The notes under the pieces were generated by a model. The model was not told where the DNA came from. It did no database searches and saw nothing but the letters and a program-made list of their open reading frames with translations. A stretch of DNA of 64,000 nt from Naegleria gruberi. Its lineage: Eukaryota. How positions within the stretch are numbered: the first letter of the stretch is position 1; each line of letters begins with the position of its first letter. A program made the translations under genes and the position numbers. This document shows positions 3 through 41,823 of the stretch, one piece after another. The stretch is taken from NCBI GenBank assembly GCA_000004985.1, contig GG738845.1; one strand, 5' to 3'.

Positions 3-3000
3 GTTATTCTAGATCCAACATTGAAGAATTTTGTATTGGTTCACGTACGTCAACTGATGAACACAAAGAATATCGAACATTCTCACGAGTTTGAAATTTT
101 ACTTACCTATTTTACTGAAGTTTTTCCAATTATTATGGATAATCCAACCCAACAAAATTTACAACTGCTAATGGAAATGTTAGCAGCTGTGCAGAAGGGT
201 TTATGTGCTTCAAACAAGAAATTATTACAAACACAATTCAGGGACAAGCTTGACAAGTTTATGCACTTGCTCAACTTGGACATTCCAACAATTATTCCAC
301 CAAATAATACAGAATTTATCACAAGGCACTGTTTAGCTATGGAGGTAATAAGAACACTTACTACACTCATTTCCGATAACTCTAAATCAAAGCACCACTT
401 TAAAAGCATTTTAGGCTATGACACTTTCAAGAATTTGATTTTACATTGTGAGCAAAATAATCCATCACCAGAAATTTTCAATGTACTTTTTGACATGTTG
501 GCAGATGGCGAATTTGATAGCGAGACAAAATATGCAATTCAAAATCCAGATGTAGCCCGTTTAATTTTCCATCTATCAATGCACTGTGAACTGAGCTATA
601 TTTCTTCATTGGTGGCCAAATTTTCTTGTCTTGTTCAGAAATCTACAAACAATAGAAATATTTGTTGTTCTGTAGGGTTAATTAGCTCTCTATTAGACTT
701 ATTGACAAGATTTGAAAAGGAATCATTCTCTGAAGAAAAGACAGTGAGCGATATCGTAAATCTTATTGAAACTATTGGAAGACATTCAATTACTGTCAAG
801 GAATTGAAAGGGTTCCTCGGTCTTATTAAGAGACAATCAGATAGAGATCAATCAGACTTTCTGGCACTACTCTTGAAAGCCCTTAAAAATATGACTCAAA
901 GCTCTCCTGATGCCTTTTTCGATTTCAATGGCACCAACTCAGGACTTGTCTTACCAACTATTGATAACAGAGTATGGCCTAACACTAAGGGATATTCTGT
1001 TTCTATGTGGGTGAGAGTTGAAAGTTTTGTAGAGTCTAGACCATCCGCTCCTAATTCTAATCCAATGACTCCTATTTCCTCTGTAAAGAGTTTATCGTTC
1101 ACTACAGATCTACAAAGAAAGGAATCCTTCCAATTCATTCCACGTTCAACTACATACAAACCAAGATTGATCAGCTTCTATAATTCTGAAGGTCAAGGAT
1201 TTGAAGTATATTTTGAGGAAAATTCTATGAATATTGTTGTTCAACATTCCCAAAAGAAGCAGTACATCGAGAAGTTAAATTACAAATTCGAGGAAAAGGT
1301 GTGGTATCATATTGTATTAACTCACAGTTATGGAAAAGGACCTTTTTCGTTCTCTAAGAATGAGTTGAGACTGTATATTAATGGCTTGTGTGTTGAGCCT
1401 AAAATCCAACTCAAATATCCAAGTCTTCACAAGCCTTTGGATAAATGTATGATTGGTTCTAGCTATCTGGTTAATGAGAGCTTACAACAAGGAAGCACAC
1501 CAACACATAAGCGACAAGCAAGTAGCTCTAATTCTGAAAATCCAAACTTTAATGGACAAATGGGTACTATTTGTGTATTTGATGAGACCTTACTTCCAAA
1601 CATTATTCAATTAATTTATAACTTGGGTTACAATTATATGAATTGCTTCCAACCTACAGATTCTGTTCTAGCTAAACAATCACAAGAATACCTTCAATTA
1701 TTTGATGGATCTATTACACAAAAGATCATATTGTGTTATAGTCCAAAGGCCAGAGCAAACTATAATAAGATATGCCTTAACAATACTCCTGAAGCATTCT
1801 ATCAACTTCAATTACATAATGGTTTGGTATCAGGTGTTGAAAATGTTCCACAAATCAAGTCAGATATCCATCAAGCCATGCTCAACTCGAGAATTTTGAA
1901 TGGTACTCAACTTTGTGTAACACACAATGCAAAAGATATTATTGGTTGTTTGGGAGGTATCAAAGTCTTGTTCCCTCTATTTTTACAAATGGATCGTCTT
2001 TCCCATACAGATCAAGTTATTAGCGAAAAAGCCGACCCATTCCTTGTTAATACCTTATTTTCATTGATAATAGATTTATTGAGTGCTCACAATGACAACT
2101 TGGAAGATATGGCACGTTGCAGAGGTTTTTTAGTTATTAGTTTCTTGTTGAAACAAATATCTCCTCAACATTTAACACGTAATACTGTTGCATTGATACC
2201 TTCACTTCTCTCTTGTGCTAAAGATCACTCAGTGTTGTATTCTGATATTGTGAACTACCTTGTATTTAATTTTAGATTGTGGATTTATACTGACGTTGAA
2301 GTTCAAAAACTATTATTCCAACAATTATTGGATATTTCTAATGAAAAGAAGGATAATTTCACTAAAATTAGGGAAATTTTGGGTGTTCAAAAATTGTTAG
2401 ACCTTATGAGATGGTTTTATTGGTATGAAAGAGCCAAATCTAATTCTACAGAAAGTGAATACCAGTTGGGAACAGAAAAAATTTGTAATCCAGCCACAGG
2501 AGCTGTTTTAGGTCAAAGACCAAGTCAAGAAAATATCTATGAAATCAGACAAAAGCTTACAAAACTTTTGAAATGTCTGACATCAAAATCAGCAGAAATT
2601 GTTATTGTAAATAATGATGAAAGACTAACAACCACAACAGGTACTGTACTCACTACAGCAACCTCTATTTCATATCCAGAACTAGAAGCCATCATTAACT
2701 TATTGGCTGATTGTAATGATAATATGCAATATTCAGATGTAGTTATCTTTGTTTTGGAGCTTTTACTTTCTCCTGATGGAGTTGTAATTGCAGACATGTT
2801 AGCGAATATGAAAGCCTACCAAGTTTTTGTTCAATTACTCTATACTCATCACGAACCAACAAGACTCAACATTCTGAAATGCATCGGCCAAATGTTAATA
2901 CTCAATCCAAAACTAAGACAAAGAGTTTTTGCAGAGACTTCTTATGGTTTTTCTACTATTACCAATATTCTTACCATTTTCAATATTACCATTCAGACCT

Positions 3001-6000
3001 ACGGAGTTTTGAGGGATATTTTCCTTGGATGTATTTCTTTGAATCAAAGGGATATCCTTGAATTTGATGGTTTTGAACAAACAGAACAAAGCTACAAAGT
3101 ACAAGCAGTGCTCCAACCAATATTCAGATTACTTGTTAATACCCAACCAAATGTCAAGCATCATATTCTTCAAAATTTTAAAATTGTTCTCAAGTCTAAT
3201 AGAGCCAAGGACTGTTTGCTACAACAAGTCGGATGGCAAGAGTGGTTGTTAAATATTATTTGTGTTTCAGGTATTTCTGATGCCTCTATTCCTTCTGATG
3301 TTGGTCAGTCTGCTCAGTTTGAACTTTGCAAAGATATTGTTATTGAACTTATTGCTATTTTGCTTTATCACTCTTTAAAAACTGTCAAAAAGGGATGGAG
3401 AGATATAGAAGATACAATTTGTCAAGTTATTCTTTTGAAAGATAGAGAGGATATTGAAGGTATAGAAGAAATATTGGGAAGTATTTATAAGAGAATTCTT
3501 GATGAATACATTTCTGACATTCAAGGAGAGAGAATTATTGCAAACTATAATGATAGAAATTCTCCAATACTTGACAATTTTGTTCACTTAGCTACATTCA
3601 TTGAGGAATATATGTTTTATTTTGATGCTATTTATCAAAGTGTCTCTGGTACATGGATGAGAAAGACAACAGAATCTGGTACAGGAGTTCTTGGCACACT
3701 GAGGAGTATTGTTGTGGGTGCTAACACAAATCGAGCTCCACAAGAGCCTGGAATTATGCCATTATCACAAGCAGCTCAACAAAATCAAGAAGATTTCGTT
3801 GTAATTGATACTAGTTCTGTGTCTGTAGGTTCTCATTCAGAAATTATTCCTTCAACTCCTGAAAGTAAGAGAGGTGATCAGTTATCATCCAATAGTCCAT
3901 CTACTGCTTCAAATCCACTGACATATAATGTTGAAGATGAAATCAATACTAGAAGAGATGAAAATAATAATTGGATTGATCTTCCAATAGCTGAAAAGCT
4001 TATAACAATACTCAGTGCTTGGAAACTCAATACAGTATCCAACTATAGTTCTCTTAGAAGTGTTGTTCAAGGAGGAAAAAGATTGAGAGATGGAGGTACT
4101 CTTAGAATAACGCTCAGACTCATTAGATATTGTTTGAGAGAGTCTCCTTCATTAGACTCATCTCTTTTAGACTGTATAAAGCGAATCAACCAGAGAGATG
4201 TGGAGAGTGAGAAGGAAATTTTAAGATTTTCTGAACTTTGGGCTGTTACTGGCGATATTGAGAATAATGATGACTTCCATACTCGTTTAATGTTTATTTT
4301 GGCCTTCTTGTTTGATATTTTAAGTAGACTTTTGGAAAAGAAACAAGAAAAGGAAGCTCTATTTGTTTTTATAACAATAAGAGAAATTTTCATGACAAGA
4401 AAAGAGTATTTGGAACAAGCGCTCACCACCGATGATGATAAATCTATTTTGACTGATGATCCTGTATTTTCCACAAAGAAGAAGGCTGATTTATCTGACT
4501 ATCTTCAAGTTATTCATTCAAAGAGCTGGAAATTTGCTTGGACAAGATTTTTCGTTCCAGCAGTGAGACTAACAGAGAAACTTGAATCTGCATTCCTGGA
4601 AGAAATTATTGTAAGAAGAAAATTCACTCTACACAGGCTTTATGATCAAATAAGGGAGGTAGAATCAGCAATGTCTGACTTGGATAAGAAAATGGATTCA
4701 GAAATCAGATCTACTTTGGAAAATATAAGAAGAGCTGAAAGAGAGAGAATCAAAAAAGAAAGAAGTTCCTATGAGGAGTTTGACTTACTAGCCTCTCATT
4801 ATTGGAAGCAAACCATGAGAAATGTGGCTGACGAAAGAGGTATTTGGGGTGGTCAAAAAGATTCAGTGAAATGGAAATTAGATAAGTGCCAAAACAGTAA
4901 ATTTATTAGAACAAGATTGGTAAGAAATTTCTCAGAAATAGACCACAAGGATGCTACCATCAAAAAGACTGACAAATCTGTAATTGTTGAAAATACTATT
5001 ACCAATAGATTATTGGAAATTAAGGAAAAAGGAAGTTTCTTTATTCCAAAACTTTCAATTATTAACAATGAAACTGAAGATGCTTCTGAAGATGGTACAA
5101 GTGAGATTACTGCCGCCACTATTTCAACACAACAACCATCCACCACCAATATTTCTGAAGATATACAAATCAACCAAAAACCAGTTGAAAGAGAAAAAAC
5201 TATTCTCAAAGATGTTGAATGTGACCTGATAAGTCCAATGGCTGGTTTCTCAGGAAAAATGGAAATTACAAGTAAGAGAATAACCTGGACACCAGATAAG
5301 GAAAATCATGCTTTGAATTTTGGTCTTGATAGTGAGAGAGTTTCCAAGTTGATTAAAAAACCAACAGAAAAGACATTCACACTTGACTCTATTGTAGAAA
5401 TTAGAATTATGAGATACAGACTGAGAAAAACAGCACTTGAATTTATTTTTGTTGATGAATCTTCCGTATTGTATAATTTTAATGTAAATGAGAGAAACAA
5501 AATATTCAACAAGATTATTTCTCAAAAGTGTCCAAACTTGAGAAATGTTGAAAAGTCCTTCTCTCCAATGGAAAACATACAAAGATCTCCATGGACTAAA
5601 AAGTGGCAGCTTGGAAAGATATCCAATTTTGATTATTTGATGATTCTAAACATGTACGCAGGAAGGACATTCAATGATCTCTCACAATATCCTATTTTCC
5701 CTTGGGTTATTGCTGACTACACCAGTCCAGTACTTGATTTTTCAAAGGAATCTACCTTTAGAGACCTCTCAAAGCCAATGGGTGTGCTCAACCCAGATAA
5801 GGTCAGAATTGTGGAAGAAAAGTACCAGACACTTGCCAGCGATACTTACACAACTCCATACCACTATGGTTCTCACTACTCTACATCAGCATATGTTACC
5901 TACTACTTAATTCGTTTAGAACCTTACACAACACATGCCAGAGTTGTTCAAGGTGGTAAATTCGATCATGCCGATAGAATGTTTGAGTCAATAACTCAAA

Positions 6001-7673
6001 CATTTGATCACTGTTTGAATGGTGAAGGAGATCACAAAGAACTTATACCAGAATTTTTCTACATGCCAGAATTTTTAAGAAAACCTCAAGATTTAGAACT
6101 TGGTGAAAAACAGAATGGAGTCCATATTAGTGATGTTGTTTTACCTGCATGGGCAAAAACACCTGAGGATTTCATTAGAATTCACAGAGAAGCCCTTGAA
6201 TCCGAATATGTTTCACAACATTTAAATGAATGGATTGACCTGATTTTTGGTTATAAACAAAGAGGTCCTGAAGCCATAAAGGCATATAACGTTTTCCCAA
6301 AGCTTACCTATGAAGGAAATATTTCATTTGATCCTCAAGAATTTTATCAAAATATGGCTACCATTGATAGTTTTGGTCAAACTCCATCCCAATTATTCCA
6401 ATCATCTCACCCAAAGAAGTCAATAACCAGAAAAGACAAACACGAAACACTTCTCTCCTTAACTGTTCAATGCTCAAAACAAATCAATACTTCCAAGGTT
6501 TCTCCAATTGTTTTAATCAAGTTATTCCATTCAGAGAATAATATTACAAGATTATGTGTTGTGAATGAGGATGGTTTTATCTATACAACCAAAATGACAA
6601 ATATTACCCTACAAACCATTCTCTCAGAGTATACTTTATTCAATAATTGCAAGACTATTGGTTTCCCATTGGATGATCCTGTTGGTTTACTTTCGTCCTC
6701 TACTGAATCTAATAATTTTGTTCCAGTTAATAGCAACAATAGTACAAAGCAAAGAAGATCACTTGCCTCACTTCCAAAACAATTATCAGGTATCAGAAGT
6801 AATGTATCTGCCTGTAAGACTGCATTTGCAATTCCAAGTTCAACAAATCCAAACTCGGTTAAAGATATCACACTCATTTCATGTAGACATCATGATAACT
6901 CTTTCAGAATTTCAAAACCATACACACAACCACTCCAAACAAAGATTACACTCTGTCAACAAAATGCCATTTGGAGACACAAGGATTTGGTCACTTGTTG
7001 TTCAATTTGTGAAGAGGATAAATATTTAGTGACTGGAAGTAGAGATACAACAGTAATGGTTTGGGATATTTTGACCAATGACTTTTTCACTTCTCAACAG
7101 CCATCAACAATTTTATATGGACACGATGATGAAGTTACTTGTGTGGTAGTTTGTAATGACTTGGATAATGTTATTAGTGGAAGCAGAGATGGAACTATCA
7201 TTATTCACTCATTAAGAAGAGGAAAATACATTAGAACAATCAAGCATCCAAATGGAGGTTGTATTAACTCTATTGCAGTTGCAAGAGAGTGTAAGATTAG
7301 CCAAGATATTGAGGTTCTTGGTAGAATTTGTGTGTATAGTAATGATGATATGATTCTATACTTGTACAGTGCTAATGGTCAATTATTGGCCAAAGCTGAA
7401 ACTAATGGAGTTTTACATTGTATGATGATATTTGATTCAAAATATGTGATTTATGGAGGAGATCACTCCATAGTTGTTAGAGATTTACATTCACTCAAAG
7501 TAATCCACAAATTCACACTCAGTGAATACATGTCTCCAATAAGAACTATTGAAATTTCCAAGGATGAACAATTGCTCTTTGCTGGTCTTGATTCTGGTCA
7601 ATTAGTAGTGTTAGGTATTGATTCAACACTCAGTAATTCCATTGCTCCACCTTCTCCAAATCAAAACCTTTAA
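3..7673 (+). CDS. BEACH-domain protein, C-terminal ~2550 aa (ConA-like lectin-type region, PH-like/BEACH core, C-terminal WD40 repeats); 5' end is outside the window
   Basis: One uninterrupted 7.6 kb ORF, open from the window edge. The BEACH core motif WIDLIFGYKQRGPEA is followed by WD40-like repeats (GSRDTTVMVWD, GSRDGTIIIHS). A ConA-like segment (SVSMWVRVESF ... ISFYNSEGQGFEVYF) lies upstream, as in LvsA/neurobeachin/LYST-family proteins. TAA stop at 7671-7673 with AATAAA immediately 3'. Confidence 0.9.
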   Translation, partial: VILDPTLKNFVLVHVRQLMNTKNIEHSHEFEILLTYFTEVFPIIMDNPTQQNLQLLMEMLAAVQKGLCASNKKLLQTQFRDKLDKFMHLLNLDIPTIIPPNNTEFITRHCLAMEVIRTLTTLISDNSKSKHHFKSILGYDTFKNLILHCEQNNPSPEIFNVLFDMLADGEFDSETKYAIQNPDVARLIFHLSMHCELSYISSLVAKFSCLVQKSTNNRNICCSVGLISSLLDLLTRFEKESFSEEKTVSDIVNLIETIGRHSITVKELKGFLGLIKRQSDRDQSDFLALLLKALKNMTQSSPDAFFDFNGTNSGLVLPTIDNRVWPNTKGYSVSMWVRVESFVESRPSAPNSNPMTPISSVKSLSFTTDLQRKESFQFIPRSTTYKPRLISFYNSEGQGFEVYFEENSMNIVVQHSQKKQYIEKLNYKFEEKVWYHIVLTHSYGKGPFSFSKNELRLYINGLCVEPKIQLKYPSLHKPLDKCMIGSSYLVNESLQQGSTPTHKRQASSSNSENPNFNGQMGTICVFDETLLPNIIQLIYNLGYNYMNCFQPTDSVLAKQSQEYLQLFDGSITQKIILCYSPKARANYNKICLNNTPEAFYQLQLHNGLVSGVENVPQIKSDIHQAMLNSRILNGTQLCVTHNAKDIIGCLGGIKVLFPLFLQMDRLSHTDQVISEKADPFLVNTLFSLIIDLLSAHNDNLEDMARCRGFLVISFLLKQISPQHLTRNTVALIPSLLSCAKDHSVLYSDIVNYLVFNFRLWIYTDVEVQKLLFQQLLDISNEKKDNFTKIREILGVQKLLDLMRWFYWYERAKSNSTESEYQLGTEKICNPATGAVLGQRPSQENIYEIRQKLTKLLKCLTSKSAEIVIVNNDERLTTTTGTVLTTATSISYPELEAIINLLADCNDNMQYSDVVIFVLELLLSPDGVVIADMLANMKAYQVFVQLLYTHHEPTRLNILKCIGQMLILNPKLRQRVFAETSYGFSTITNILTIFNITIQTYGVLRDIFLGCISLNQRDILEFDGFEQTEQSYKVQAVLQPIFRLLVNTQPNVKHHILQNFKIVLKSNRAKDCLLQQVGWQEWLLNIICVSGISDASIPSDVGQSAQFELCKDIVIELIAILLYHSLKTVKKGWRDIEDTICQVILLKDREDIEGIEEILGSIYKRILDEYISDIQGERIIANYNDRNSPILDNFVHLATFIEEYMFYFDAIYQSVSGTWMRKTTESGTGVLGTLRSIVVGANTNRAPQEPGIMPLSQAAQQNQEDFVVIDTSSVSVGSHSEIIPSTPESKRGDQLSSNSPSTASNPLTYNVEDEINTRRDENNNWIDLPIAEKLITILSAWKLNTVSNYSSLRSVVQGGKRLRDGGTLRITLRLIRYCLRESPSLDSSLLDCIKRINQRDVESEKEILRFSELWAVTGDIENNDDFHTRLMFILAFLFDILSRLLEKKQEKEALFVFITIREIFMTRKEYLEQALTTDDDKSILTDDPVFSTKKKADLSDYLQVIHSKSWKFAWTRFFVPAVRLTEKLESAFLEEIIVRRKFTLHRLYDQIREVESAMSDLDKKMDSEIRSTLENIRRAERERIKKERSSYEEFDLLASHYWKQTMRNVADERGIWGGQKDSVKWKLDKCQNSKFIRTRLVRNFSEIDHKDATIKKTDKSVIVENTITNRLLEIKEKGSFFIPKLSIINNETEDASEDGTSEITAATISTQQPSTTNISEDIQINQKPVEREKTILKDVECDLISPMAGFSGKMEITSKRITWTPDKENHALNFGLDSERVSKLIKKPTEKTFTLDSIVEIRIMRYRLRKTALEFIFVDESSVLYNFNVNERNKIFNKIISQKCPNLRNVEKSFSPMENIQRSPWTKKWQLGKISNFDYLMILNMYAGRTFNDLSQYPIFPWVIADYTSPVLDFSKESTFRDLSKPMGVLNPDKVRIVEEKYQTLASDTYTTPYHYGSHYSTSAYVTYYLIRLEPYTTHARVVQGGKFDHADRMFESITQTFDHCLNGEGDHKELIPEFFYMPEFLRKPQDLELGEKQNGVHISDVVLPAWAKTPEDFIRIHREALESEYVSQHLNEWIDLIFGYKQRGPEAIKAYNVFPKLTYEGNISFDPQEFYQNMATIDSFGQTPSQLFQSSHPKKSITRKDKHETLLSLTVQCSKQINTSKVSPIVLIKLFHSENNITRLCVVNEDGFIYTTKMTNITLQTILSEYTLFNNCKTIGFPLDDPVGLLSSSTESNNFVPVNSNNSTKQRRSLASLPKQLSGIRSNVSACKTAFAIPSSTNPNSVKDITLISCRHHDNSFRISKPYTQPLQTKITLCQQNAIWRHKDLVTCCSICEEDKYLVTGSRDTTVMVWDILTNDFFTSQQPSTILYGHDDEVTCVVVCNDLDNVISGSRDGTIIIHSLRRGKYIRTIKHPNGGCINSIAVARECKISQDIEVLGRICVYSNDDMILYLYSANGQLLAKAETNGVLHCMMIFDSKYVIYGGDHSIVVRDLHSLKVIHKFTLSEYMSPIRTIEISKDEQLLFAGLDSGQLVVLGIDSTLSNSIAPPSPNQNL

Positions 7674-7714
7674 ATAAACAATTTTTTCAATAACTTCAAA
7701 ATTCAACATTAAAA

Positions 7715-8410
7715 ATGAAAAAAAGTTCAAACAAGGTATCTACACCCTCATCAACAACAGAAGATGATAAACCAAAGAAGCAACTCTCATCGTCGATAGC
7801 TTCCCTCAGGTTTATGAATCGGAATAAGCCAGCAACAAATTCCGATTCAACAAATCAATTACCTTCTCCTGCTCTTTCTTTCAAATCAGCAACTTCTCGT
7901 GTAGTAAAATCATCATCCAATTCTTCATTATCGAATAAAAACAATAGTAGTAGTGCCACTCCTGTTCCTCCCCAACAATCTGCTTCACCAAGTGTAGCAT
8001 CTTCATCAATTCAAAATACAGCAACACCAAAGAATCACAAAGCAGAACAGTGGAGTTATGCACAAGAAGGAAAACTAGATCAAGTCATCAATAATACCTT
8101 GTCAAACTATTCACTGAGTACAAATCAAGATACTCTGTTATCCTCAAACTCTTATGCCTGTCAAGAAGACAATGAATCAATTTATTCTTTAAATTTCTAT
8201 AGACATTTGGAAGGAGAACCAACAGAGGAAACAACTTCGGATTATGTAAGAGGAGGAAGACTTAAATTCGGAACTTATAAACAAGAGGAAATTGCAATCA
8301 CAACAGAAATAGATCCAAGTAGTGCACTGAAAAGAAAGAAGGATGATAATATTAAATTACCTATTGGAATTAGCTCCACTCAAAATAAGAAAAAGAAACA
8401 TAAAAAATAA
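7715..8410 (+). CDS. hypothetical Ser/Asn-rich low-complexity protein with a Lys-rich C-terminal tail
   Basis: ATG-initiated 231-aa ORF starting only 41 bp after the BEACH gene stop. Composition is strongly biased toward S, N and T, and the C-terminus reads KKKKHKK. No recognisable domain. Confidence 0.4.
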   Translation: MKKSSNKVSTPSSTTEDDKPKKQLSSSIASLRFMNRNKPATNSDSTNQLPSPALSFKSATSRVVKSSSNSSLSNKNNSSSATPVPPQQSASPSVASSSIQNTATPKNHKAEQWSYAQEGKLDQVINNTLSNYSLSTNQDTLLSSNSYACQEDNESIYSLNFYRHLEGEPTEETTSDYVRGGRLKFGTYKQEEIAITTEIDPSSALKRKKDDNIKLPIGISSTQNKKKKHKK

Positions 8411-9719: not shown

Positions 9720-11420
9720 ATGAAGAGAAAGCATCAAGTGAACGATGACTCGGATTCTGATTCCGATGAAGATTATTATGAAGAACCAAAAAAGCAAAGA
9801 CATAGTACTGGTTCGGCTTTTATGAATGCTTTTAATTCTATTTTGTCTGATTCAATTATACTTGATAATTATTCTAATTATGAGAATTTACCATTAGGAA
9901 TTAAATTTAAAGTGGTTCTTCGAAGTTTTAGACAAATGACAATAATTGAAAAGTTCTTTATTTTCAACAAATTACATAATATTAGTTATAGTACAATTCG
10001 TGAAGCGGATTGTATTGCTCTTTTAAGTCTAGGATTTTCACAAATAACTGAAGATGAAATTGGTAATTTACAAACATATTTCAAAAAAAAGGGAAAATCA
10101 TCTAATTACAATGATACTAAATATACATTACTCGATTTTGAGAATAATGACACTAGATTGTATTGGCAATTGTCATATCAAACTTGGGTTACTTTTTATC
10201 ATGATATGGTGGATTGTTATACAACTAGATACAACTCGAGAAATCCAAATGAAATTCCATCAAACTTTAATGAAACATTAGAGCAAATATCTAGAGATTC
10301 TAATTTCTATGCGAAAGCTATTCATGTCATTAGAAAAAAGTTGAGACATATTCCTGGGAAAACTTCTGGAAGCCAGGATATGAGCAAATTGTACAATAAT
10401 TTAACTGATGTTCTGTCCACAATGGAAGAAGCTAGTATGGAGAAAGTTGATGGTATTCATATGATTAATGAAAAGATACTGTCTGCTAACTTTTTCTTCC
10501 ACTTTTTACAATCTGAGGAGGATAAGAAATCTCAACTTGGAGCCTTTTTACTGAAAAAAGCAAGAATTATAGATGATATGGAGATTGTAAAGGTTTTATA
10601 TCCAATCAATACCAAAACCTCCTTTACTTCGCTCCCTATTTCAATACTCAACTTGGAGAAATCTATTCTATTTTTTAATGAGTTTATCAAGGCAAGAGAG
10701 ACTTCACTTATAAAACCAATAAGGGGCACACATATCAAAACAAAATTCTCTAACTATGGTAGAAAGGAACAAGATGTTACAGAGGTAGAACCAACCACCA
10801 CCACCATTAGCGAACAACCAAAAGAAAAGACTGTGATGATCCCTCATCAACAAGTCTCGACACCTTCTAAAGAAAGTCCTAGTGTAGCAGCATCTAACAC
10901 TAAGAATGGAAGCTCATCATCAGAAAATGTAAAACAACAACCTCCAAGTGTTGAACCAGCAACAGCAGCAGCAACGATTTCAACCCCAACTCTTCCACAA
11001 CAAACAAAACCAATTACAGCTACAGTAACTACTACTTCTTCATCAGCAGCCTCATCAGCAGCAACCAATTCTGATACTGCTACCATTACTTCACCACCTA
11101 GAGAACAACAAACCAGTAAACCAAATGAAATACCAGTTATTGACCTAGAGAATGACAAACTTGATGCAGCTGGTGTATTTAGAAATTGGTGGGTTGGAGA
11201 ATACAGGAACTTTGACTTTTCAAAACATCAAGCTGTCCTTTCAGCTAAAAGGTTATTACAATTCTTCAGTACTGCCATGAGACAAAAAGATCCAACCTTT
11301 CACATTGACAGTTCTCATACTTCTTGGAGAGTAATAAGAAAGGCTATTGAAAAGGGAGAGATTCATGGATTAAGAGTTGAAGGAGAAGGAGGTAGATCGT
11401 TTAAGGTTATTAATCAATAA
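9720..11420 (+). CDS. hypothetical protein (acidic N-terminus, Ser/Thr/Ala-rich linker, conserved-looking C-terminal region)
   Basis: 566-aa ATG-initiated ORF. The N-terminus (DDSDSDSDEDYYEE) is acidic and an internal STP-rich tract is present. TAA stop is followed by AATAAA. No family recognised. Confidence 0.5.
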   Translation: MKRKHQVNDDSDSDSDEDYYEEPKKQRHSTGSAFMNAFNSILSDSIILDNYSNYENLPLGIKFKVVLRSFRQMTIIEKFFIFNKLHNISYSTIREADCIALLSLGFSQITEDEIGNLQTYFKKKGKSSNYNDTKYTLLDFENNDTRLYWQLSYQTWVTFYHDMVDCYTTRYNSRNPNEIPSNFNETLEQISRDSNFYAKAIHVIRKKLRHIPGKTSGSQDMSKLYNNLTDVLSTMEEASMEKVDGIHMINEKILSANFFFHFLQSEEDKKSQLGAFLLKKARIIDDMEIVKVLYPINTKTSFTSLPISILNLEKSILFFNEFIKARETSLIKPIRGTHIKTKFSNYGRKEQDVTEVEPTTTTISEQPKEKTVMIPHQQVSTPSKESPSVAASNTKNGSSSSENVKQQPPSVEPATAAATISTPTLPQQTKPITATVTTTSSSAASSAATNSDTATITSPPREQQTSKPNEIPVIDLENDKLDAAGVFRNWWVGEYRNFDFSKHQAVLSAKRLLQFFSTAMRQKDPTFHIDSSHTSWRVIRKAIEKGEIHGLRVEGEGGRSFKVINQ

Positions 11421-11432
11421 ACTAAATTTATT

Positions 11433-12668
11433 TTACAATTTAGACAACCTAGATTCATCACGTTTGTATTTTGATAATTCAGTTCTTCTCTTCCACTTTT
11501 CCAAGTCAGTATAGATGGGTATTCTTGGACCACGAGCATCCAAATCTTGCCATTGATATTGGAAAAAGTCAGCTGTAATTGGAGGATAAATTTCTCTAAA
11601 AACTGAGAATAATAATTCCATTGTCCAACATTTCAGTTTAAATCTTGGAACATGTCTTATTGGTTCTGTAGACTTGATTTTACATCTATCATCTTCAACT
11701 TCCAATGAAAGTAAAAGTAAATCGTCACAGTACATGGCATCCTCATCAGTACAAACAGGTGGTTGAATATATTCGTAATCAACAACACAAAAACCAATAT
11801 TTCTCATAATCTTGTGTCTGTCTTCCGATTTCATGACACCATCATCAACTCCAATAGCATTTGTTTCAGCAAAAAAGTAAAATTCGTCATCTTCTTTTTC
11901 AAGAACCTTCTTCAAATTAGAATCGCTTGCTTTAACGCGAGCATCATCCAAACACAATTCAATATATTGTTGAGCAAATTGAAGTTGACCTTTTTGAGTT
12001 TTGGTTAATTGAAGAATAGTTTCATCACCAACATTCCAATTTCTTACATGCATTAAAGCATTATTAAGTGCTTCCCATCTGTTCGGCTTTCTTTTTGCAT
12101 ATAATTCATATTTGCAATATTCATAAGCTTGATAAACAAGAGTTTTTCCCAAACCATAGTTTCTATATTTTTCACAAACGACAAAGTATGTGAATAAAGC
12201 ACATTGAGACATTTCATAATACTCAAAAACAGAAATGCCTGCAATATTTTCATATCTCATCTCCTTATCGTCCTTTCCATTAACTTCATATGCAACCATA
12301 ATGTGCATAAGTGGAACAAAAACACGATTACCCTTGTGAGTCAAATTGTTAACCCAAACTTCTAAAGGATCTAATTCGGATTCAATAGGAAAATTTACCA
12401 TCATAATTTCATTATAAATTTTAGTAATTAAAGCAAGAGAAAAGTAATCTCTTAGTGAAATAAATCTAAATTTCTTATCCTTTACAGTGTAGAAGAAATC
12501 TGAACCTTTTCCGTCCTCCTTAGACAAGTCTAAATTATATTCCGCAGCATCTGATGATACATTGTTGTCAGCAGTAGCAACACTAGAAGATGTATTGTTT
12601 AATTCCAACAAATTGTTTTGAAAATGGAATTGTCTTTTTAAATGTTTTTTTATCATTTTATGAATCAC
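11433..12668 (-). CDS. GNAT-family N-acetyltransferase-like protein
   Basis: 411-aa ORF. VVCEKYRNYGLGKTLV resembles the GNAT acetyl-CoA binding motif A (R/Q-x-x-G-x-G/A). Convergent with the upstream gene; the two stops are 13 bp apart. Confidence 0.45.
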   Translation of the reverse strand: MIHKMIKKHLKRQFHFQNNLLELNNTSSSVATADNNVSSDAAEYNLDLSKEDGKGSDFFYTVKDKKFRFISLRDYFSLALITKIYNEIMMVNFPIESELDPLEVWVNNLTHKGNRVFVPLMHIMVAYEVNGKDDKEMRYENIAGISVFEYYEMSQCALFTYFVVCEKYRNYGLGKTLVYQAYEYCKYELYAKRKPNRWEALNNALMHVRNWNVGDETILQLTKTQKGQLQFAQQYIELCLDDARVKASDSNLKKVLEKEDDEFYFFAETNAIGVDDGVMKSEDRHKIMRNIGFCVVDYEYIQPPVCTDEDAMYCDDLLLLSLEVEDDRCKIKSTEPIRHVPRFKLKCWTMELLFSVFREIYPPITADFFQYQWQDLDARGPRIPIYTDLEKWKRRTELSKYKRDESRLSKL

Positions 12669-14015: not shown

Positions 14016-14337
14016 TGTGATGATATATATATACAAAATTGTTTGGTTGTAATACTAAATGGTATCTAGTTGGAGGTGAAGATGTTTCGTACCCGACTAA
14101 GTGTTCTTGTAGTGATTTTTGAAAATAACTGACAAGAAAACGCGTTGCTGGCGTGCGTTGTTGTTAGGAAAGGGGAGTTGGAGATGATATTTTTTTGTCT
14201 CTAAATATGTTTTGTTAGTCGTTTAAATAAAGATGTATAGATAATTTAGTGCCTTTTGAATTTTGAAAATTCAGATAGTTTCAATTTGACGCTAATTGGA
14301 AGCCGTTCAACAGCAAAAAGTGGATGACGAGAATTTA

Positions 14338-17300
14338 TTAAAACTGGTTTGATGTTGTTTGGCTATTAATTTTAGAGGAAACATGATATTTTCTGACGTT
14401 GGCAATGGCGTTGGCTGCACTCAATTGTAGAGCATCATTTTTGGCACTCAACAGTCTAACCAACAAGTTTACGGTATTACAAATTCGCAACGTTTTAGAG
14501 ACAATTTCATTCTCTGAAAGAACACTTAATGCGTATGAAGTGTTTCTGAAAATGTGATGATAGTGGCAATCGATATCAGATGGTGTAACACCATTGGTTG
14601 GTAAATTCTCATAAAGCTCATCAGTTGCTTCTCCATCTTTGTTTGGTGTTGATGAACTTGATTCCAGTATTGACAAACTTGTAAGCGCGTTTGTGAGGTT
14701 AAGGTATGGAGCACAAACCAGGCTGTGACAAACGAAAGGGGAAATTTTTGATTGAGACTTTTTAAAGCTTTTTTCTTGTAATGGTTGTTGTCCGTTTTGT
14801 TGAATTGAGGAATGACCAAAAGTAAAACTAGCACTTTTTGTCAATTGGTTTTCAGTTGTTGATTTGTTTGGGTTTGCAATAGATAAAATTTCAACCATTG
14901 CTGTATTTTCATAATGCTTTCTATGATTAGAATCATAGTGCTTTTGCAGCATTCTTTGGAATTTGATATTCTCAATGAGAGGATCTACTACTCCCTTTTC
15001 AAAGAAAGAAAGGGAATTATGTTGATGTTTTCCCAATTCTGCAATTGCCAAAGCAGCCATTGAACGTAAGTAGAGATTTTCATCGAGTCTCTGGTTGTAA
15101 TTTGGATTATCGTAGACCAACTTTTTCTTCTCCCCACTTTCAGTTTCATACGTACACATGGAAAAATCATTTGTTTTTGGCTTTGTTGCCATCTGAATCA
15201 TTAATTCGTCAATCCACTTTTGAGTATTTTTCAACATGTTTGCGATGTGAGTACAGGCACCTTCCTCAGTGAAAATGGCTCTGTTAATTGGGTTCTGACT
15301 CATTTTAGCAATGGCAAGGCAAATATTGGCTAGAACAAAAATATCTTTAGAGGATTCCAAAACTCTCACCAGAACACCAATTCCACTAACATATGTCTCA
15401 CCAATTCTGGCAGCAATATCAGCATTGTGGATGCAATTTGAAATGGCCATAGCAGCTGCAGCCTGAATTTCTGGTTTTTCATTTCTCAACATTGACCACA
15501 TTGCCTTCATAGCACCCTGTTTCAGCATGCTGTCAAGGACAGAGTTACAGTTACAAATTCTTCCTAGTATATCTAGACAGTGAACAATTAAATCCGTTTT
15601 GGATGACGAAACCAAGAGAGGTGAGATGTAATCCACTATTCCAGATTTGAAAATCAGCAATTTGGTCCAAGGGAGTTTTGCACAATTGGCAATAATTCCA
15701 GCACACCTAAACTTGATTAATTCATCTGATTTTTCTACAGATTTTGTTTTGAGAAGGCTACTGATATAGTTGGAATCAACAATGACTTCCTCAGGTTCAT
15801 GTATTTCGGATTTTCTTCGTCTTCTGGATGGAGAAAGACTTGCAGAAACATTAACTTTTGGAACTGGTGGCGGCTTTACTTTCTTTTTAGGAATGAAATT
15901 AATATCCAGAAAGCCAGTCAGTGAGGGTAATAATCCTAGCTCGAAAATCTTCTCAGAGTTTTCCATAGAGAATGACGCATTGTACATGGCACCAGTAATG
16001 TATTCCAATAAAATTAGAGATCTCTCTGGATCATTTTTCGATTGTTTCTCACACCTCTTTATCCAACTTCCCATAATTTCAAGGATTGTATTGATCTGTT
16101 CTCTGACATATTCTGTTTTTGTTATTGAGAAAAATGAGGCACAACAGTAAATACTTACTCTCAACTGTTAGATTGAATAATAGTCCAGCCATTACAATTA
16201 GTAAATCTATATGGTACGTATTGGATTTAGTCATTATGTTATTAATCGACGCCACCACTAGTAAAAGCTTCTTAATCATGTTTGAGTTTCTCATTTGAGT
16301 TCGAATATTTTCTAAGAGAAATCACTTTTTAGGGGAGAGTATAATCAAACTTACCATTTTCAGCACAGTGCATGAATGACCCGATCACTGGAACTAAAAG
16401 CTTGTAAGGTCCAATAACTGACGAATCAGCCTCATTTCCAAAATCCTTCAAATAGGTGAACAAATGATCGAGATATATATCTAGTATTGAAATTCCAATA
16501 TCACCTCCAATTTTCACATTTAGAATATCCTCTTGATTAGACTCTTCAATGTTGGTTGCAGTGAGAAAAGTGTTGAAACTTACTTCTTTTAGATGCAGTC
16601 CAGATAACTCGTAAAGAATTGTAAATTATAGAAAGTGCTTCAGAAGGAGTTGAATTTTGTAAAGCCTGTGAGGCAACACTAAACGGCCTGGAAATGGCCA
16701 TTGACTTGTTTCTAAAATGTTCAAATATATTTACAGGTGAATTAGATGATCCATCAAAGAACCCTTTACAATTGTAAAGGAATTGGAACATTTTCTTAAT
16801 TCCTTTTGATTTGGTTATTATTTTTCTAACAGCTAATCTCTCACAACAATTAGCAATTACCTCACAAACTAGTTTTTGGAAAGATATTTGTGCATGTTTG
16901 TCTATCTTCACTCTCGATTGTCTGGTTAGTTCGGAGCTACCCATATTCAATGCTCTTAATAGAGAGGGAATGTTTTCAGCAATAGTAAGTTGAATCCTTG
17001 CTATTTTAATTGTTTGTTAACAACATCTCATCAATACAGGTTCAATACATACAATTATTTGATAAGTGAGATAAAATATTGGCTGCTCCCACACGAATTC
17101 TTTCATCTCCATTATATTCGAATAATTTAATAAATGTGGGTATACCTCCACATTCCACAATTGCGTATTGGTTACTCACTAATGAAAAAATGATTAGATT
17201 AATCTAAACTGAAGAACTTACCATCCCCCATATCTAAATCTTGGAAAAATGAAATTGCCAAAATGATATTTCTTTGAGATGTAGTTGAGATTGTGGTGGC

Positions 17301-18534
17301 TGAAGAGGTTGTTGGATGACCCACCTGTTTTGTATCCTTTTCTTTAAAATCACTCTCTGGGGTATTCTGTCTAACAACCTTGACCATCTTATTGATTCTG
17401 GCAACCAATGGTGAGACATCATCTTGACAAGGCAGGTCATTAACAAATGAAATGGTGAAACTTACGATTTTTGGGTAAGGTAACAGCTATCGACTCTTCT
17501 TCATCGCTCGAGTCAGTTGTCTTTGTAAACATGGTGCTTTTCTCAAGCTCCTTTACCTTGCTTTTGGTTAGATTGTCCTTTTTTAAAAATCTTGGGTCAG
17601 TAGATATTCCTTTCTGTTCCAAGAGAAAGGAGTAAGTGAAGATTTCCTTCTTTTTCTTTTGTTTTGGTTTTGATTCCTTTGGTGGCATCATAACTGGAGA
17701 CGGGGTCGAACTGATTCTGCTCAATGCATCAAGATTATTCCCATTATTAAGTGTTTCATATCTATCTGTTGGAATATTCTGGTTAAAAGTTACGGACATT
17801 CTTCGTTTCCTTTCTTCTAAATTTATGTTATCTGACATCGTTAATTCCTTTGGAGTTTCATTGGCTGCAATCAGTCTAGATTGGGATCTGAGTCTGGACA
17901 TTGTTGTGTTTCTAACTAAACTATTTGATCTTTCCCTTCTTCTAAAAGCAATAAAATTTGAAAAGAGGTGGAGTTCGAATTGAGCTATAAAATTATTAAA
18001 TTGAAGTCTTCGGAACAAATCTGATTCTTTAACTTTGGCATTTTCTTGCTCAATCAGATCTTTTATGGTGTCTTCAAATTCGTTAAGATTTTTACTAATA
18101 TCTTCCTCCACTGTCAAGTTTTGATTATTTTTCCCAGAACTCAATAATAATAGTTTCTTATTGTTTTGTAAAAATGATTTCATTTCCTGAAACAATTTAC
18201 CCCACTTTTCTGCGTTTTCTAAATGATTTAAAAAGGAATAAATAGTTCTAAACTCCACTGCAGATGATTTTTTCTCCAACTCTATTCCCATTTGATCTCT
18301 TGACAGACATGTCTCATATCTAATCACTAAATCATTCGGAAGTATCAAATGAAACAACTCCATAAAGGCAGATTTTTGTATCATTCCTTTCTGGTATTGT
18401 TGTTGTTGATTTTGGTAATCCACAAATAAATTATGTAAGGCATTTCCGATATACTCTAACACGTGAATATGCTGTTCATTAGACAAATCCAATGCAGTTA
18501 AATTTTTAAATTGTGCCGAAACAAAATTGCCCAT
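14338..18534 (-). CDS. large armadillo-repeat protein with N-terminal myristoylation-type signal (MGNFVSAQ), 7 exons, about 1310 codons
   Basis: Hand-joined exons on the minus strand are 17466..18534, 17222..17422, 17053..17178, 16584..17000, 16355..16543, 16159..16311 and 14338..16112. All junctions use GTAAGT or GTATGT donors and AG acceptors, with introns of 40-52 nt. Reading frames stay continuous across the ORF-track pieces at 17440..18534, 17199..17408, 16546..16950, 16329..16517 and 14338..16164. ARM-like repeats are present (GGIPTFIKLF, GAMKAMWSMLRNEKPEIQAAAAMAISNCI). Total length is 3930 nt. Confidence 0.65.
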
Positions 18535-18599: not shown

Positions 18600-18611
18600 T
18601 TTGGCGCCAAA
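18600..18611. promoter_or_regulatory. palindromic E2F-type site TTTGGCGCCAAA, about 70 bp upstream of the armadillo-repeat gene start, with an adjacent TTGGCGG half-site
   Basis: Exact 12-bp palindrome in a roughly 30% GC context. An E2F-like TTGGCGG sits 5 bp away. Confidence 0.4.
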
Positions 18612-18663
18612 GTTTTGAAAGATTTACTCAAGTTCTGAATAACATCATTTTATTGCTCTAATC

Positions 18664-20461: not shown

Positions 20462-22018
20462 ATGGATTCACCTGGACGAGCAAATCACAGCACATCAAAC
20501 AATTCAAAAACAACATCATTAAATAACAACAACGGAGGGCCTTTACGAATAAGCGTTCAAAACCAAGGATCTTCAAACAATTTTTCTTCTCCTGTTAGTC
20601 CATCATCGGGAAACCTTGGATCACCTTATAAAATGCAGAAAAAGTTTGATTCATATGAAACAGCCCTTAACAGCAAATTGAGACTGGAAACTCCACCAAC
20701 CGAAGAGGATTTAAAGTCAGAAATACCCAGTCAAAAAAAGTATGATCAAATATTACAAAATGTTGAGAATGTTGTAAAACAACAAACATCGTTTATGAAT
20801 TCGGATTCAATCACTGGCAATGTTGCTACATCAAGGCCAGAAACTAAGTTGAAACAAAAAAAGAAAAAGAAAGGAAGTGCTCTGTATAATCCAACAGGGG
20901 CTAGTGAAACCAGTTATATGGAATTGTATAATAATTTAAGAGAAAAATATCAGACGCTACTTGCTGAAAATCTAAGACAACAAGAAGTATTCAAATTGAG
21001 GCACGATACATTTTTGAAACGAGAGCAACAATCTAAGGAAATAGAAACTGAGCTACATGAGAAAATGAGAGAATCCATGATTGCTAGGGGAGCTGCTGGG
21101 GATCATATGCAACATTTAGTATTAATGAAAGAAAAAATTCAAGAAGGAGTAACTCTAATGAGATTGGAAACTCAAAGACTTTTGGATGGAAAAGAAAAAG
21201 AATTTGGAAGAAAAATAGAGGAAATGATTAGGAGATTCGACAGAGATCTTGCTGATGAAAAGAAAATTAATACGTCAGGAGAACGAGAGTGGAGGGAAAA
21301 GAGTAAATCTTTGAAGAAAGAGTTGGATAATTCAACTGCTCAAGTCATTAAGGTTGACCAACTCAATCATGAGCTGATGAAGGAAAACCAAAAATTAAAA
21401 ATTCAATTTGCAGCCCAAGAAGATGACAGAAACTATCTAGCAAAACATATTGCAAAAACTAAAAGAGACAATGAAAAGCTAAAAGAGGAAACCAAAAGAC
21501 TTCAGGAAGAACTTCAAAGATGCAATAATATAATTAAGGAAATGCAACTTTTAAAACCAATGAGCCCTACAACTCCATCTTTTGCAAATAACAAATCTTC
21601 AATAACCAGTCCTAGAGATAGGGACTCTTCTTCAATCTACACAGTGAATCACTTATCAATTTTGGAACCAGAAGAAAAGGAAAGAAGATTTTTAGAGGCA
21701 AATAACAAACTAAAGAAACTTCTTGATCAAGAAAGGAGAAACATTAGGCAAATTAGAGCTCAAAATATAAGAATATTAGAGGAAAGAACAGAATTAGAAA
21801 TATTCTTAAAGAGTTGTATTGAAGATGTAAAAGAAGAAGTGCGAAGAATGAAGGGAGAAAAGGGAGATAATGAATTCCATAAAAGGGATAGAATGAGAGT
21901 GATAGAGTTACTTCTTTCAAAAGAAAGAGTCATCAAAATACTGTATGAAAGAATGTTTGACAAACCACCAGAAAAAGATTTTGATGTAGAAAGTCAACAC
22001 CAACAGTTTACAGAATAA
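20462..22018 (+). CDS. coiled-coil protein (hypothetical)
   Basis: 518-aa ATG ORF. Long heptad-like E/K/L/Q-rich stretches and a KKKKKG basic patch. The stop is embedded in AATAAA. Confidence 0.55.
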   Translation: MDSPGRANHSTSNNSKTTSLNNNNGGPLRISVQNQGSSNNFSSPVSPSSGNLGSPYKMQKKFDSYETALNSKLRLETPPTEEDLKSEIPSQKKYDQILQNVENVVKQQTSFMNSDSITGNVATSRPETKLKQKKKKKGSALYNPTGASETSYMELYNNLREKYQTLLAENLRQQEVFKLRHDTFLKREQQSKEIETELHEKMRESMIARGAAGDHMQHLVLMKEKIQEGVTLMRLETQRLLDGKEKEFGRKIEEMIRRFDRDLADEKKINTSGEREWREKSKSLKKELDNSTAQVIKVDQLNHELMKENQKLKIQFAAQEDDRNYLAKHIAKTKRDNEKLKEETKRLQEELQRCNNIIKEMQLLKPMSPTTPSFANNKSSITSPRDRDSSSIYTVNHLSILEPEEKERRFLEANNKLKKLLDQERRNIRQIRAQNIRILEERTELEIFLKSCIEDVKEEVRRMKGEKGDNEFHKRDRMRVIELLLSKERVIKILYERMFDKPPEKDFDVESQHQQFTE

Positions 22019-22066
22019 ATTGGAAATATTTATTTTAGGACAACATTTGAAATATATTATTCTATA

Positions 22067-23891: not shown

Positions 23892-23903
23892 TTTGGCGCC
23901 AAA
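23892..23903. promoter_or_regulatory. palindromic E2F-type site TTTGGCGCCAAA, about 30 bp upstream of the CDC27 start codon, in a divergent promoter
   Basis: Exact copy of the same 12-mer. Located between the divergently transcribed coiled-coil/PH gene and CDC27. Confidence 0.45.
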
Positions 23904-26367: not shown

Positions 26368-26390
26368 AGACTTTTTATATCATTGTCAAA

Positions 26391-29788: not shown

Positions 29789-29800
29789 ACAACCAACTTT
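29789..29800. promoter_or_regulatory. E2F-type site TTTGGCGCCACA, about 25 bp upstream of the WD40/EF-hand gene start codon (minus strand)
   Basis: Same GGCGCC core with TTT flank. One-base deviation from the palindrome. Confidence 0.35.
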
Positions 29801-37649: not shown

Positions 37650-37652
<3 letters not shown>

Positions 37653-37680
<28 letters not shown>

Positions 37681-37681
37681 T
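37653..37681. repeat. (AT)n dinucleotide microsatellite, about 14 units, inside a 2.8 kb gene-free AT-rich island
   Basis: Perfect ATATAT... run. Shorter (TA)5-7 runs at about 36845 and 37163. Confidence 0.9.
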
Positions 37682-41795: not shown

Positions 41796-41823
41796 AAAAG
41801 ATCTTTCAAAATTAAAAAAATAA

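Follow-up and report, generated by a model that had tools for sequence, protein, structure and literature searches.

Stop codons overlapped by AATAAA and closely packed genes in a 64,000-nucleotide window of Naegleria gruberi DNA

The genes in the window, a 64,000-nucleotide stretch of N. gruberi nuclear DNA, are most probably separate, individually polyadenylated transcription units that are tightly packed, with AAUAAA serving as the polyadenylation signal and superimposed on the stop codon in ~45% of them. The association between stop codons and AATAAA is real but already known in N. gruberi, from direct RNA sequencing. The Utp21 open reading frame (ORF) of the window is 100% identical to an N. 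gruberi protein encoded on a 1.56-Mb scaffold, and six ORF translations match N. gruberi NEG-M proteins exactly.

AATAAA at gene ends

AATAAA overlaps the stop codon in 14 of the 31 genes of the revised map, in the aaTAAa register in 11 genes, as T(AATAAA) in two, and as TA(AATAAA) in one. The coordinates were checked, and all 14 are dual-use stops by the published definition, in which the hexamer overlaps the stop and is searched for from 2 nt upstream to 5 nt downstream (PMC11529991). The hexamer lies 0–1 nt 3' of the stop in two further genes, and 20/31 genes carry it within −5 to +36 of the stop. The earlier note had proposed at least nine such stops; the pattern is real, but the number was an undercount, and the gaaTAAa that it listed at stops ending at 22018, 26367, 45459, 58377, and 61387 is present in every case. 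Eleven genes, among them Utp21, the EML-like gene, and orf372, lack AATAAA in the 36 nt that follow the stop, and variants or signals farther away must serve them instead; one of the 11, orf258, has the hexamer 7 nt ahead of its stop. In the first list of 35 ORFs, 14 of the 26 TAA stops overlap the hexamer, compared with 6.5% of 3285 other TAA triplets (p=1e-10).

The hexamer is strongly strand-specific. The 44.8 kb of coding sequence contain 6 copies of sense AATAAA where codon shuffling predicts 46.8 +/- 6.9 (z=-5.9), an avoidance of ~8-fold, and 72 copies of its complement TTTATT where 54.8 are expected. Across gene spans, 6 copies are sense and 85 antisense. The 20 nt after terminal hexamers have a T content of 0.45 versus 0.37 at other AATAAA copies (p=5e-4), in line with the U-rich downstream element published for N. 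gruberi (PMC11529991). In contrast to the published genome-wide result, TGTA is not enriched upstream of the terminal hexamers of the window (0.15 vs 0.25, n=20). The avoidance on the sense strand is indirect evidence that AAUAAA is the polyadenylation signal of the organism; published RNA data supply the direct evidence. There, nanopore direct RNA sequencing (reads in GEO GSE260731) identified AAUAAA as the signal, 15–20 nt upstream of cleavage, and annotated 3'UTRs as a whole had a median length of 39 nt, those at dual-use stops one of 22 nt (Sajek et al. 2024, Genome Res 34:1570, PMC11529991). The suggestion in the earlier note that genes have next to no 3'UTR and that the stop context signals polyadenylation thus gains support from the sense avoidance, the stop overlap in ~45% of genes, and the published nanopore data; its expectation that this would be notable for the organism is overtaken by the same literature.

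The published dual-use share is about 11–13% of annotated N. gruberi genes (PMC11529991). The share in the window, 45% (14/31), is higher with p ~5e-7 if the window is taken as a random sample, and the window was chosen because of the stop/AATAAA pattern; dual-use stops might possibly be several times commoner in N. gruberi than published.

Gene map, spacing, and the two tight same-strand pairs

The revised map was derived from ORFs and orthologue comparison, which also supplied the starts and some gene boundaries, and not from RNA (Table 1). Three ORF pairs of the first list are each exons of one gene (39695/40452, the pieces of the ARM-repeat gene, and 47983/48606), and the pairs cited in the earlier note are not among them. 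The span of the ARM-repeat gene is shown by exon-wise matches to a gene of ≥1390 aa in N. lovaniensis. Upstream of some ATGs, strong donor sites point to additional 5' exons. Spacers in the window reach 3 kb, and the window is not uniformly compact.

Table 1. Genes, spacers, and AATAAA hexamers in the window
Feature	Position	Strand	Remarks
BEACH-domain gene	57–7673	+	cut at window 5' end; stop TAA 7671–7673; single ORF >2538 aa
AATAAA, as TA(A ATAAA)	7673–7678	+	first base is last base of BEACH stop; T6 run 7683–7688 downstream
Spacer, 41 nt	7674–7714	+	BEACH stop to next same-strand ATG; no AG dinucleotide
orf231, conserved gene, 231 aa	7715–8410	+	no Pfam family; own dual-use stop, AATAAA 8406–8411
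AATAAA with TAA stop 11418–11420	11416–11421	+	566-aa gene 9720–11420 (XP_002683234.1); orthologue alignment reaches 2 codons from stop
AATAAA directly after TAA stop 11435–11433	11427–11432	-	407-aa gene 11433–12656 (XP_002683556.1)
AATAAA overlapping stop	14334–14339	-	multi-exon ARM-repeat gene 14338–18534
gAATAAA dual-use stop	22014–22019	+	518-aa gene 20462–22018 (XP_002683235.1)
AATAAA of PH-domain gene	22029–22034	-	convergent gene
gAATAAA dual-use stop	26363–26368	+	APC3/Cdc27-like gene 23932–26367, 45-nt intron 24717–24761
TAG stop of EML-like gene	26391–26393		convergent; 23 nt from APC3/Cdc27-like stop
gAATAAA dual-use stop	33125–33130	-	alpha/beta-hydrolase gene 33126–34355
Gene of ~686 aa	39695–41795	+	two ORFs joined by 43-nt intron 40371–40413 (GTATGT...CTCTAG)
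AATAAA, gaaTAAa dual-use stop	41791–41796	+	~686-aa gene, stop 41793–41795
Spacer, 28 nt	41796–41823	+	second AATAAA 41819–41824 shares last base with ATG
PATROL1/MUN-like gene, 1211 aa	41824–45459	+	Pfam TPR_PATROL1 match; dual-use stop, AATAAA 45455–45460
AATAAA	45464–45469	-	gene convergent to PATROL1-like gene
Dual-use stop	56971–56976	+	Utp6-like gene 55194–56975 (XP_002683243.1)
Dual-use stop	58373–58378	+	DUF3429 gene 57325–58377 (XP_002683244.1)
Dual-use stop	59581–59586	-	Tim17-family gene 59582–60538 (XP_002683565.1)
Dual-use stop	61383–61388	+	LSM-domain gene 60959–61387
AATAAA overlapping stop 62714–62716	62715–62720	+	cyclophilin gene 61583–62716

Median spacers are 46 nt between convergent, 263 nt between tandem, and 301 nt between divergent genes, the latter two values being approximate because several mapped 5' ends are uncertain. 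Convergent spacers are shorter than divergent ones (p=0.009), whereas tandem spacers are not (p=0.37), and these lengths by orientation fit one gene per transcript. Same-strand runs comprise 1–4 genes, with a mean of 1.6. An E2F-like palindrome, TTGGCGCCAA, lies 32–68 nt upstream of three ATGs, and one copy shares a 129-nt tandem spacer with the AATAAA of the upstream gene. H3K4me3, a histone mark of active promoters, is found at most N. gruberi genes (PMC12695648).

The close neighbours pointed out in the earlier note were all recovered. The convergent stops at 11420/11433 and 26367/26391 nearly touch, with 12 nt and 23 nt between them; at the former, the plus-strand and minus-strand hexamers stand back to back in and beside the spacer, and the 407-aa gene and its orthologue align with 77% identity as far as the last codon. 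The same-strand pairs, with stop 7673 before ATG 7715 and stop 41795 before ATG 41824, are nearly abutting as described.

The BEACH stop reads TAAATAAA. The BEACH gene is 69% identical over 1467 aa to an N. lovaniensis gene that carries the Pfam domains Beach, PH_BEACH, and NBCH_WD40, and the alignment reaches within 5 codons of the stop. The homologues of orf231 are stand-alone proteins of 227–284 aa, covering 96–99%. In N. lovaniensis, a distance of 5.6 kb and three genes on the opposite strand separate the orf231 orthologue from the BEACH gene. Sequence comparison thus shows two separate genes. The exact orf231 sequence is absent from the public protein collection, and this conserved 231-aa gene is apparently unannotated.

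For the ~686-aa gene no homologues were found, and its support is the long ORF alone. The N-terminus of the PATROL1-like gene, MKAISNAKTRFS, aligns from Met1 with MKALSKAKLRHS of N. lovaniensis, and the motif EYERNxLLL is conserved in three species; the start at 41824 is conserved. In N. lovaniensis the orthologue consists of one exon, and its neighbour on the upstream side is divergent. These two genes are likewise separate. The public model P0011 (1567 aa, 40452–45459) joins a 447-aa ORF to the PATROL1-like ORF, and this fusion is probably wrong.

Alternative explanations

Chance from base composition could in principle place functionless AATAAA at stops, since the genome is 67% A+T (G+C 26–36% across the window), prefers TAA as stop, and is rich in GAA and AAA codons. 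TAA makes up 23/31 stops, the +4 base is A in 18/31, and the last codon before a dual-use TAA-A is most often GAA, AAA, or CAA. In addition, the dual-use status of N. gruberi genes is not conserved in their N. lovaniensis orthologues. However, the aaTAAa register is found in 11/31 genes (35%), whereas codon usage, stop usage, and the +4 base together predict 6.1% (p=1e-6), and TAA triplets in non-genic DNA of the same composition lie in the hexamer in only 9.3% of cases (p=1e-8 against the TAA stops). Composition cannot produce the 14-fold asymmetry between the strands inside genes either, and coincidence is an extremely unlikely explanation. The tight same-strand pairs might instead be exons of single genes, with short introns removing the stop as in the public 1567-aa model. 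Introns of 43–45 nt do occur in the genome, and the three re-merged ORF pairs were such cases. This is very improbable for the pairs discussed here. Between BEACH and orf231 the available donors are weak (GTATTG, GTAATT) and the acceptors lie inside conserved sequence, while the orf231 orthologues stand alone at ~230 aa and are placed differently in N. lovaniensis. Splicing out the P0011 intron, 41772–41994, would remove MKAISNAKTRFS and EYERNVLLLF, both of them conserved in N. lovaniensis and the third species, and the N. lovaniensis gene is one exon from the homologous Met.

Co-transcription, the other possibility raised in the earlier note, would make tight same-strand genes as one precursor that is then resolved by spliced-leader (SL) trans-splicing, as in Euglenozoa, or translated from one mRNA. 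Naegleria and Euglenozoa both belong to Discoba and have short same-strand spacers in common, spacers of 28 and 41 nt are too short for a conventional promoter plus two UTRs, and the 28-nt spacer holds one AG, in an A-rich context. It is nevertheless highly unlikely and is not supported by the analysis. Both upstream stops carry AATAAA, a hexamer avoided in coding sequence, so that a 3'-processing signal separates the ORFs of each tight pair, where a bicistronic message would have none. Unlike in Euglenozoa, every upstream gene has its own polyadenylation signal, same-strand runs are short, and tandem spacers are not shortened within runs. An AG acceptor with a pyrimidine tract is not found upstream of each downstream ORF, and 7674–7714 lacks AG altogether. 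A search of the window with Rfam found no SL RNA family, the sole match being a tRNA. In N. lovaniensis the orthologues of neither pair are adjacent same-strand genes, and they are therefore expressed independently there. Published nanopore direct RNA reads show discrete 3' ends for each gene, and a survey of Discoba put the same-strand runs of Heterolobosea at ~2 genes and did not find there the long runs of Euglenozoa (bioRxiv 10.64898/2026.07.29.740908).

Proposed organisation and relation to known systems

For individually polyadenylated genes, cleavage would occur ~15–20 nt past a dual-use AAUAAA, with distance and usage taken from the published RNA data, giving 3'UTRs of ~20 nt. Such short 3'UTRs would account for convergent genes that end 12–48 nt apart and for same-strand neighbours able to start 28–41 nt after the preceding stop. 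The predicted 3' ends of convergent mRNAs would run ~10–15 nt into each other's last codons. In the tight pairs, with their 28- and 41-nt spacers, the next ATG would follow the predicted cleavage site after only ~6–20 nt, which would put the downstream core promoter inside the last codons or the 3'UTR of the upstream gene. The downstream 5'UTR would then be only a few nt long or would overlap the 3' end of the neighbour. A more tentative and rather doubtful version holds that downstream transcription starts in the upstream last codons or 3'UTR, so that the mRNAs overlap head to tail and the functional AAUAAA of the neighbour stands in the 5' leader of the downstream mRNA. If this is true, the leader of the 41824 mRNA would also contain the second AAUAAA that overlaps the ATG, and an AAUAAA close to the cap would have to be ignored.

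Overlapping transcription is reportedly a feature of highly compacted eukaryotic genomes such as those of microsporidia and nucleomorphs. In these genomes, only tens of nt separate the genes and a transcript inevitably has its start or end within an adjacent gene; signals are degraded, and multi-gene transcripts are common. The window likewise has spacers of tens of nt, but each of its genes retains an AATAAA under strong selection as well as promoter motifs of its own, and compaction is uneven.

The closest known case is the published set of N. gruberi dual-use stops, which shares the organism, the hexamer, the definition, and the consequence of ultrashort 3'UTRs; that study does not discuss gene spacing, convergent 3'-end overlap, or the positions of neighbouring promoters (PMC11529991). 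Giardia and Spironucleus also have dual-use stop and poly(A) signals (as summarised in PMC11529991). In Giardia the signal is WGURAA with cleavage 8–9 nt downstream, in contrast to the canonical AAUAAA, 15–20 nt distance, and metazoan-like auxiliary elements of Naegleria (PMC11529991).

The analysis adds little that is new, and a published property of N. gruberi is recovered independently from sequence. In this genome, AATAAA on or beside the stop marks gene ends reliably, and this marker is the basis for flagging both the 1567-aa fusion as probably wrong and the 231-aa gene as apparently unannotated.

Gene content and the revised gene map

The window has a G+C content of 26-36%, with long ORFs crowded on both strands, and is 77% genic overall. 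The ORF products are typically eukaryotic and include BEACH, APC3/Cdc27, EML-like WD40, Utp21, Utp6, Tim17, LSM, cyclophilin, PATROL1/MUN-like, RNase III, and dual-specificity phosphatase proteins. The translations of six ORFs match N. gruberi NEG-M RefSeq proteins exactly (e.g., XP_002683234.1 and XP_002683556.1). The Utp21 product is 100% identical to an N. gruberi predicted protein, and its orthologues in N. lovaniensis, N. fowleri, and Willaertia show identities of 62%, 61%, and 43%, respectively. Judged by its sequence, the window is N. gruberi nuclear DNA.

The gene map was compiled from ORFs, Pfam matches, and comparison with the syntenic N. lovaniensis locus, and its revision at three places gave 31 genes (Table). 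AATAAA is absent at every 'stop' removed by this revision. Two spliceosomal introns, both very short, start at strong donors (GTAAGT or GTATGT); one encloses the in-frame 'stop' at 24720 and the other that at 40396. A stretch of ~3 kb with a G+C content of only 26%, one short (AT)14 repeat, and no ORF reaching 70 aa is unusual for the window; strong donor motifs suggest that a gene with several exons occupies its left edge. The tRNA gene sits between the divergent Tim17-family and LSM genes, in a spacer of 420 nt.

Table. Positions of the features discussed in the text
Feature	Position	Strand	Remarks
BEACH gene	57-7673	+	
orf231	7715-8410	+	231 aa
Back-to-back AATAAA	11416-11421; 11427-11432	+; -	at convergent stops 11420/11433
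AATAAA ... TTTATT inverted repeats	11416-11432; 22014-22034; 45455-45469		arms 3-10 nt apart
ARM-repeat gene	14338-18534	-	three ORFs are exons of one gene; N. lovaniensis gene at least 1390 aa
TTGGCGCCAA sites	18601-18610; 23893-23902; 29800-29809		
AATAAA in 129-nt tandem spacer	18649-18654	-	signal of the upstream gene
Short intron	24717-24761		45 nt
Strong donor motifs	35887; 36486; 36787	+	
ORF-poor stretch	36700-39690		
686-aa gene	39695-40396 and 40452-41795	+	two ORFs, one gene; 43-nt intron 40371-40413, GTATGT...CTCTAG
PATROL1-like gene	41824-45459	+	
Probable single gene	47983-48387 and 48606-49670		two ORFs; strong donor 33 nt before the upstream 'stop'
258-aa gene	54189-54965		
AATAAA in 258-aa gene	54199-54204	-	
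tRNA-Lys(CTT)	60729-60801	-	

Poly(A) signals on stop codons

The earlier note described TAA stops embedded in the poly(A) signal AATAAA and almost abutting genes, and all of its coordinates proved correct on re-checking. The stops ending at 22018, 26367, 45459, 58377, and 61387 read gaaTAAa. The BEACH stop is TAAATAAA, followed after 41 nt by the ATG at 7715, and the stop at 41795, also gaaTAAa, is followed by an ATG after 28 nt. The convergent stops 11420/11433 and 26367/26391 leave spacers of 12 and 23 nt, respectively. On the revised map, AATAAA overlaps the stop codon in 14 of 31 genes, lies 0-1 nt past it in two more and 7 nt before it in one, and is present at -5 to +36 relative to the stop in 20 of 31. 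The copy ahead of its stop sits in the last codons of the 258-aa gene, and the cleavage site predicted there would leave a 3'UTR of only ~5-10 nt.

By three tests, the pattern is real, significant, and beyond chance. Fourteen of the 26 gene-terminal TAA codons occupy these AATAAA registers, compared with 6.5% of the 3285 other TAA in the window (p=1e-10) and 9.3% of the non-genic TAA (p=1e-8). For the aaTAAa register, the last codon must end in AA, as 14.1% of codons do, the stop must be TAA, and position +4 must be A; multiplied together, these frequencies give 6.1%, whereas 11 of 31 genes have the register (p=1e-6). On the sense strand of 44.8 kb of coding sequence, AATAAA occurs 6 times against 46.8 +/- 6.9 expected from shuffling codons within genes (z=-5.9), while its complement TTTATT shows no such depletion (72 copies, 54.8 expected). 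Gene spans hold 6 sense and 85 antisense copies, a 14-fold strand asymmetry such as a functional RNA signal should show, since a copy inside a gene would truncate the mRNA. The T content of the 20 nt after the terminal hexamers is 0.45, higher than the 0.37 found after other copies of AATAAA (p=5e-4), and an upstream TGTA element shows no enrichment at the 20 terminal hexamers of the window.

The mechanism is not new and has already been described for N. gruberi itself. In nanopore direct sequencing of N. gruberi poly(A) RNA (Sajek et al. 2024, Genome Research, PMC11529991), the top hexamer is AAUAAA, located ~15-20 nt upstream of cleavage sites, and the median 3'UTR is 39 nt. AAUAAA overlaps ~11-13% of annotated stops, termed 'dual-use' stop codons, whose 3'UTR median is 22 nt; coding sequence is poor in AAUAAA, and a U-rich downstream element aids discrimination (PMC11529991). 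The share of 14/31 found here clearly exceeds the genome-wide 11-13% (p ~5e-7 if the window is taken as a random sample), and the simplest explanation is that the window was chosen because of the pattern. Annotation errors also contribute to the gap, since a fused public model hides one dual-use stop and one gene is missing from the public protein collection, but they are not the whole answer because five dual-use genes are annotated exactly as called here. Among 27 stops annotated in loci of N. fowleri and N. lovaniensis, ~4 are dual-use, a count from few genes and unverified models that cannot explain 45% versus 11-13%. Dual-use status is not conserved between orthologues.

Separate genes in the tight same-strand pairs

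The packing had been read either as short 3'UTRs with polyadenylation signaled by the stop context, or as polycistronic co-transcription of adjacent genes. The short-3'UTR reading is correct, according to the sequence statistics of the window and the published N. gruberi RNA data (PMC11529991), and co-transcription is unsupported. The median spacer is 46 nt for convergent genes, where two 3' ends meet, 263 nt for tandem genes, and 301 nt for divergent genes; convergent spacers are shorter than divergent ones (p=0.009), whereas tandem spacers are not (p=0.37). Such orientation dependence is the pattern expected for independent units. Same-strand runs comprise 1-4 genes (mean 1.6), and Heterolobosea have ~2 genes per run and lack the long runs characteristic of Euglenozoa (2026 preprint, bioRxiv 10.64898/2026.07.29.740908). 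In both tight pairs the upstream gene carries AATAAA on its stop, and no trans-splice acceptor AG is present in the 41-nt spacer 7674-7714. A tRNA was the sole Rfam match in the window. Most N. gruberi genes carry H3K4me3, a histone mark of active promoters (PMC12695648). Exact look-ups of window proteins found no RNA contigs, the matches being to contigs of metagenome ERR1078381 (PRJEB11402) or none. Contigs of this metagenome (L001, L002, L007, L008) encode proteins identical to the window phosphatase and cyclophilin, which indicates the presence in the sample of N. gruberi or of a strain very close to it.

All GT..AG introns that would remove the stop at 7673 or 41795 and join the frames were listed; both sets contain weak donors only, and the orthologues speak against them. 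The same screen found real introns elsewhere, by which the gene map was corrected. Homologues of orf231, from N. lovaniensis and two metagenomes, have 227, 232, and 284 aa and cover 96-99% of it. In N. lovaniensis, 5.6 kb and three opposite-strand genes separate the orthologue of orf231 from the BEACH gene, and flanking synteny is retained (566-aa gene, 407-aa gene, phosphatase, and ARM gene). On these comparisons, BEACH and orf231 are two separate genes. The public protein collection lacks the exact orf231 sequence, which also matches no Pfam family; orf231 appears to be an unannotated N. gruberi gene.

At the second pair, the public 1567-aa model P0011 (40452-45459) fuses the 447-aa ORF, the second ORF of the 686-aa gene, with the PATROL1-like ORF via an intron at 41772-41994. 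This intron would delete conserved N-terminal residues, namely MKAISNAKTRFSRQTQDG, whose alignment with N. lovaniensis MKALSKAKLRHSQKQQQDG starts at Met1, and EYERNVLLLF, conserved in three species. The N. lovaniensis PATROL1-like gene is a single exon from the homologous Met, with a divergent neighbor 81 nt upstream. The fusion is thus most likely an annotation error covering two genes 28 nt apart, and by sequence comparison the ATG at 41824 is the real start. A second AATAAA (41819-41824) shares its last base with this ATG. No homologues of the 447-aa ORF were found, which is weak evidence because the search also missed the public fused model containing most of the ORF.

The motif TTCAAAATT, present 11-12 nt ahead of the ATG in each tight spacer, was rejected as a shared promoter/initiator motif; its 11 copies in the window against 8.4 expected show no enrichment. 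The ARM-repeat, APC3/Cdc27, and EML-like genes each have the E2F-like palindrome TTGGCGCCAA 32-68 nt ahead of their ATG, and the window has five matches with at most one mismatch against 0.5 expected. These sites suggest putative cell-cycle promoters within very short spacers. One copy shares a 129-nt tandem spacer with the AATAAA of the upstream gene, so short spacers do hold a 3' signal plus a gene-specific promoter element, which also speaks against co-transcription.

Convergent pairs and predicted mRNA ends

For the convergent pair 11420/11433, the public annotation is identical to the call made here, and orthologue alignments support both C-termini to the last codons. Its signals stand back to back, a layout repeated at two other places, so that AATAAA ... 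TTTATT forms a small inverted repeat. Such a repeat would serve as a two-way 3'-end signal with mRNA ends overlapping in antisense. At 11420/11433, each mRNA would end ~10-15 nt within the last codons of the other gene, giving an antisense overlap of ~25-35 nt. The syntenic N. lovaniensis pair is 135 nt apart. Annotated spacers of 13-29 nt occur in N. lovaniensis and N. fowleri loci (L005 4415/4429, L004 3178/3208, L003 19933/19956), which points to genus-wide tight packing.

When the published N. gruberi distances are applied to the window stops, cleavage of the BEACH mRNA is predicted near 7693-7700, 15-22 nt short of the ATG at 7715, and that of the upstream mRNA of the second pair near 41811-41818, 6-13 nt short of 41824. 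With predicted cleavage so close to the next ATG, the core promoters of the 7715 and 41824 genes would lie inside the last codons or 3'UTR of the preceding gene. Their 5'UTRs would be a few nucleotides long or would overlap the 3' end of the neighbor. The residual interest of the 28- and 41-nt pairs is the position at which transcription of the downstream genes starts.
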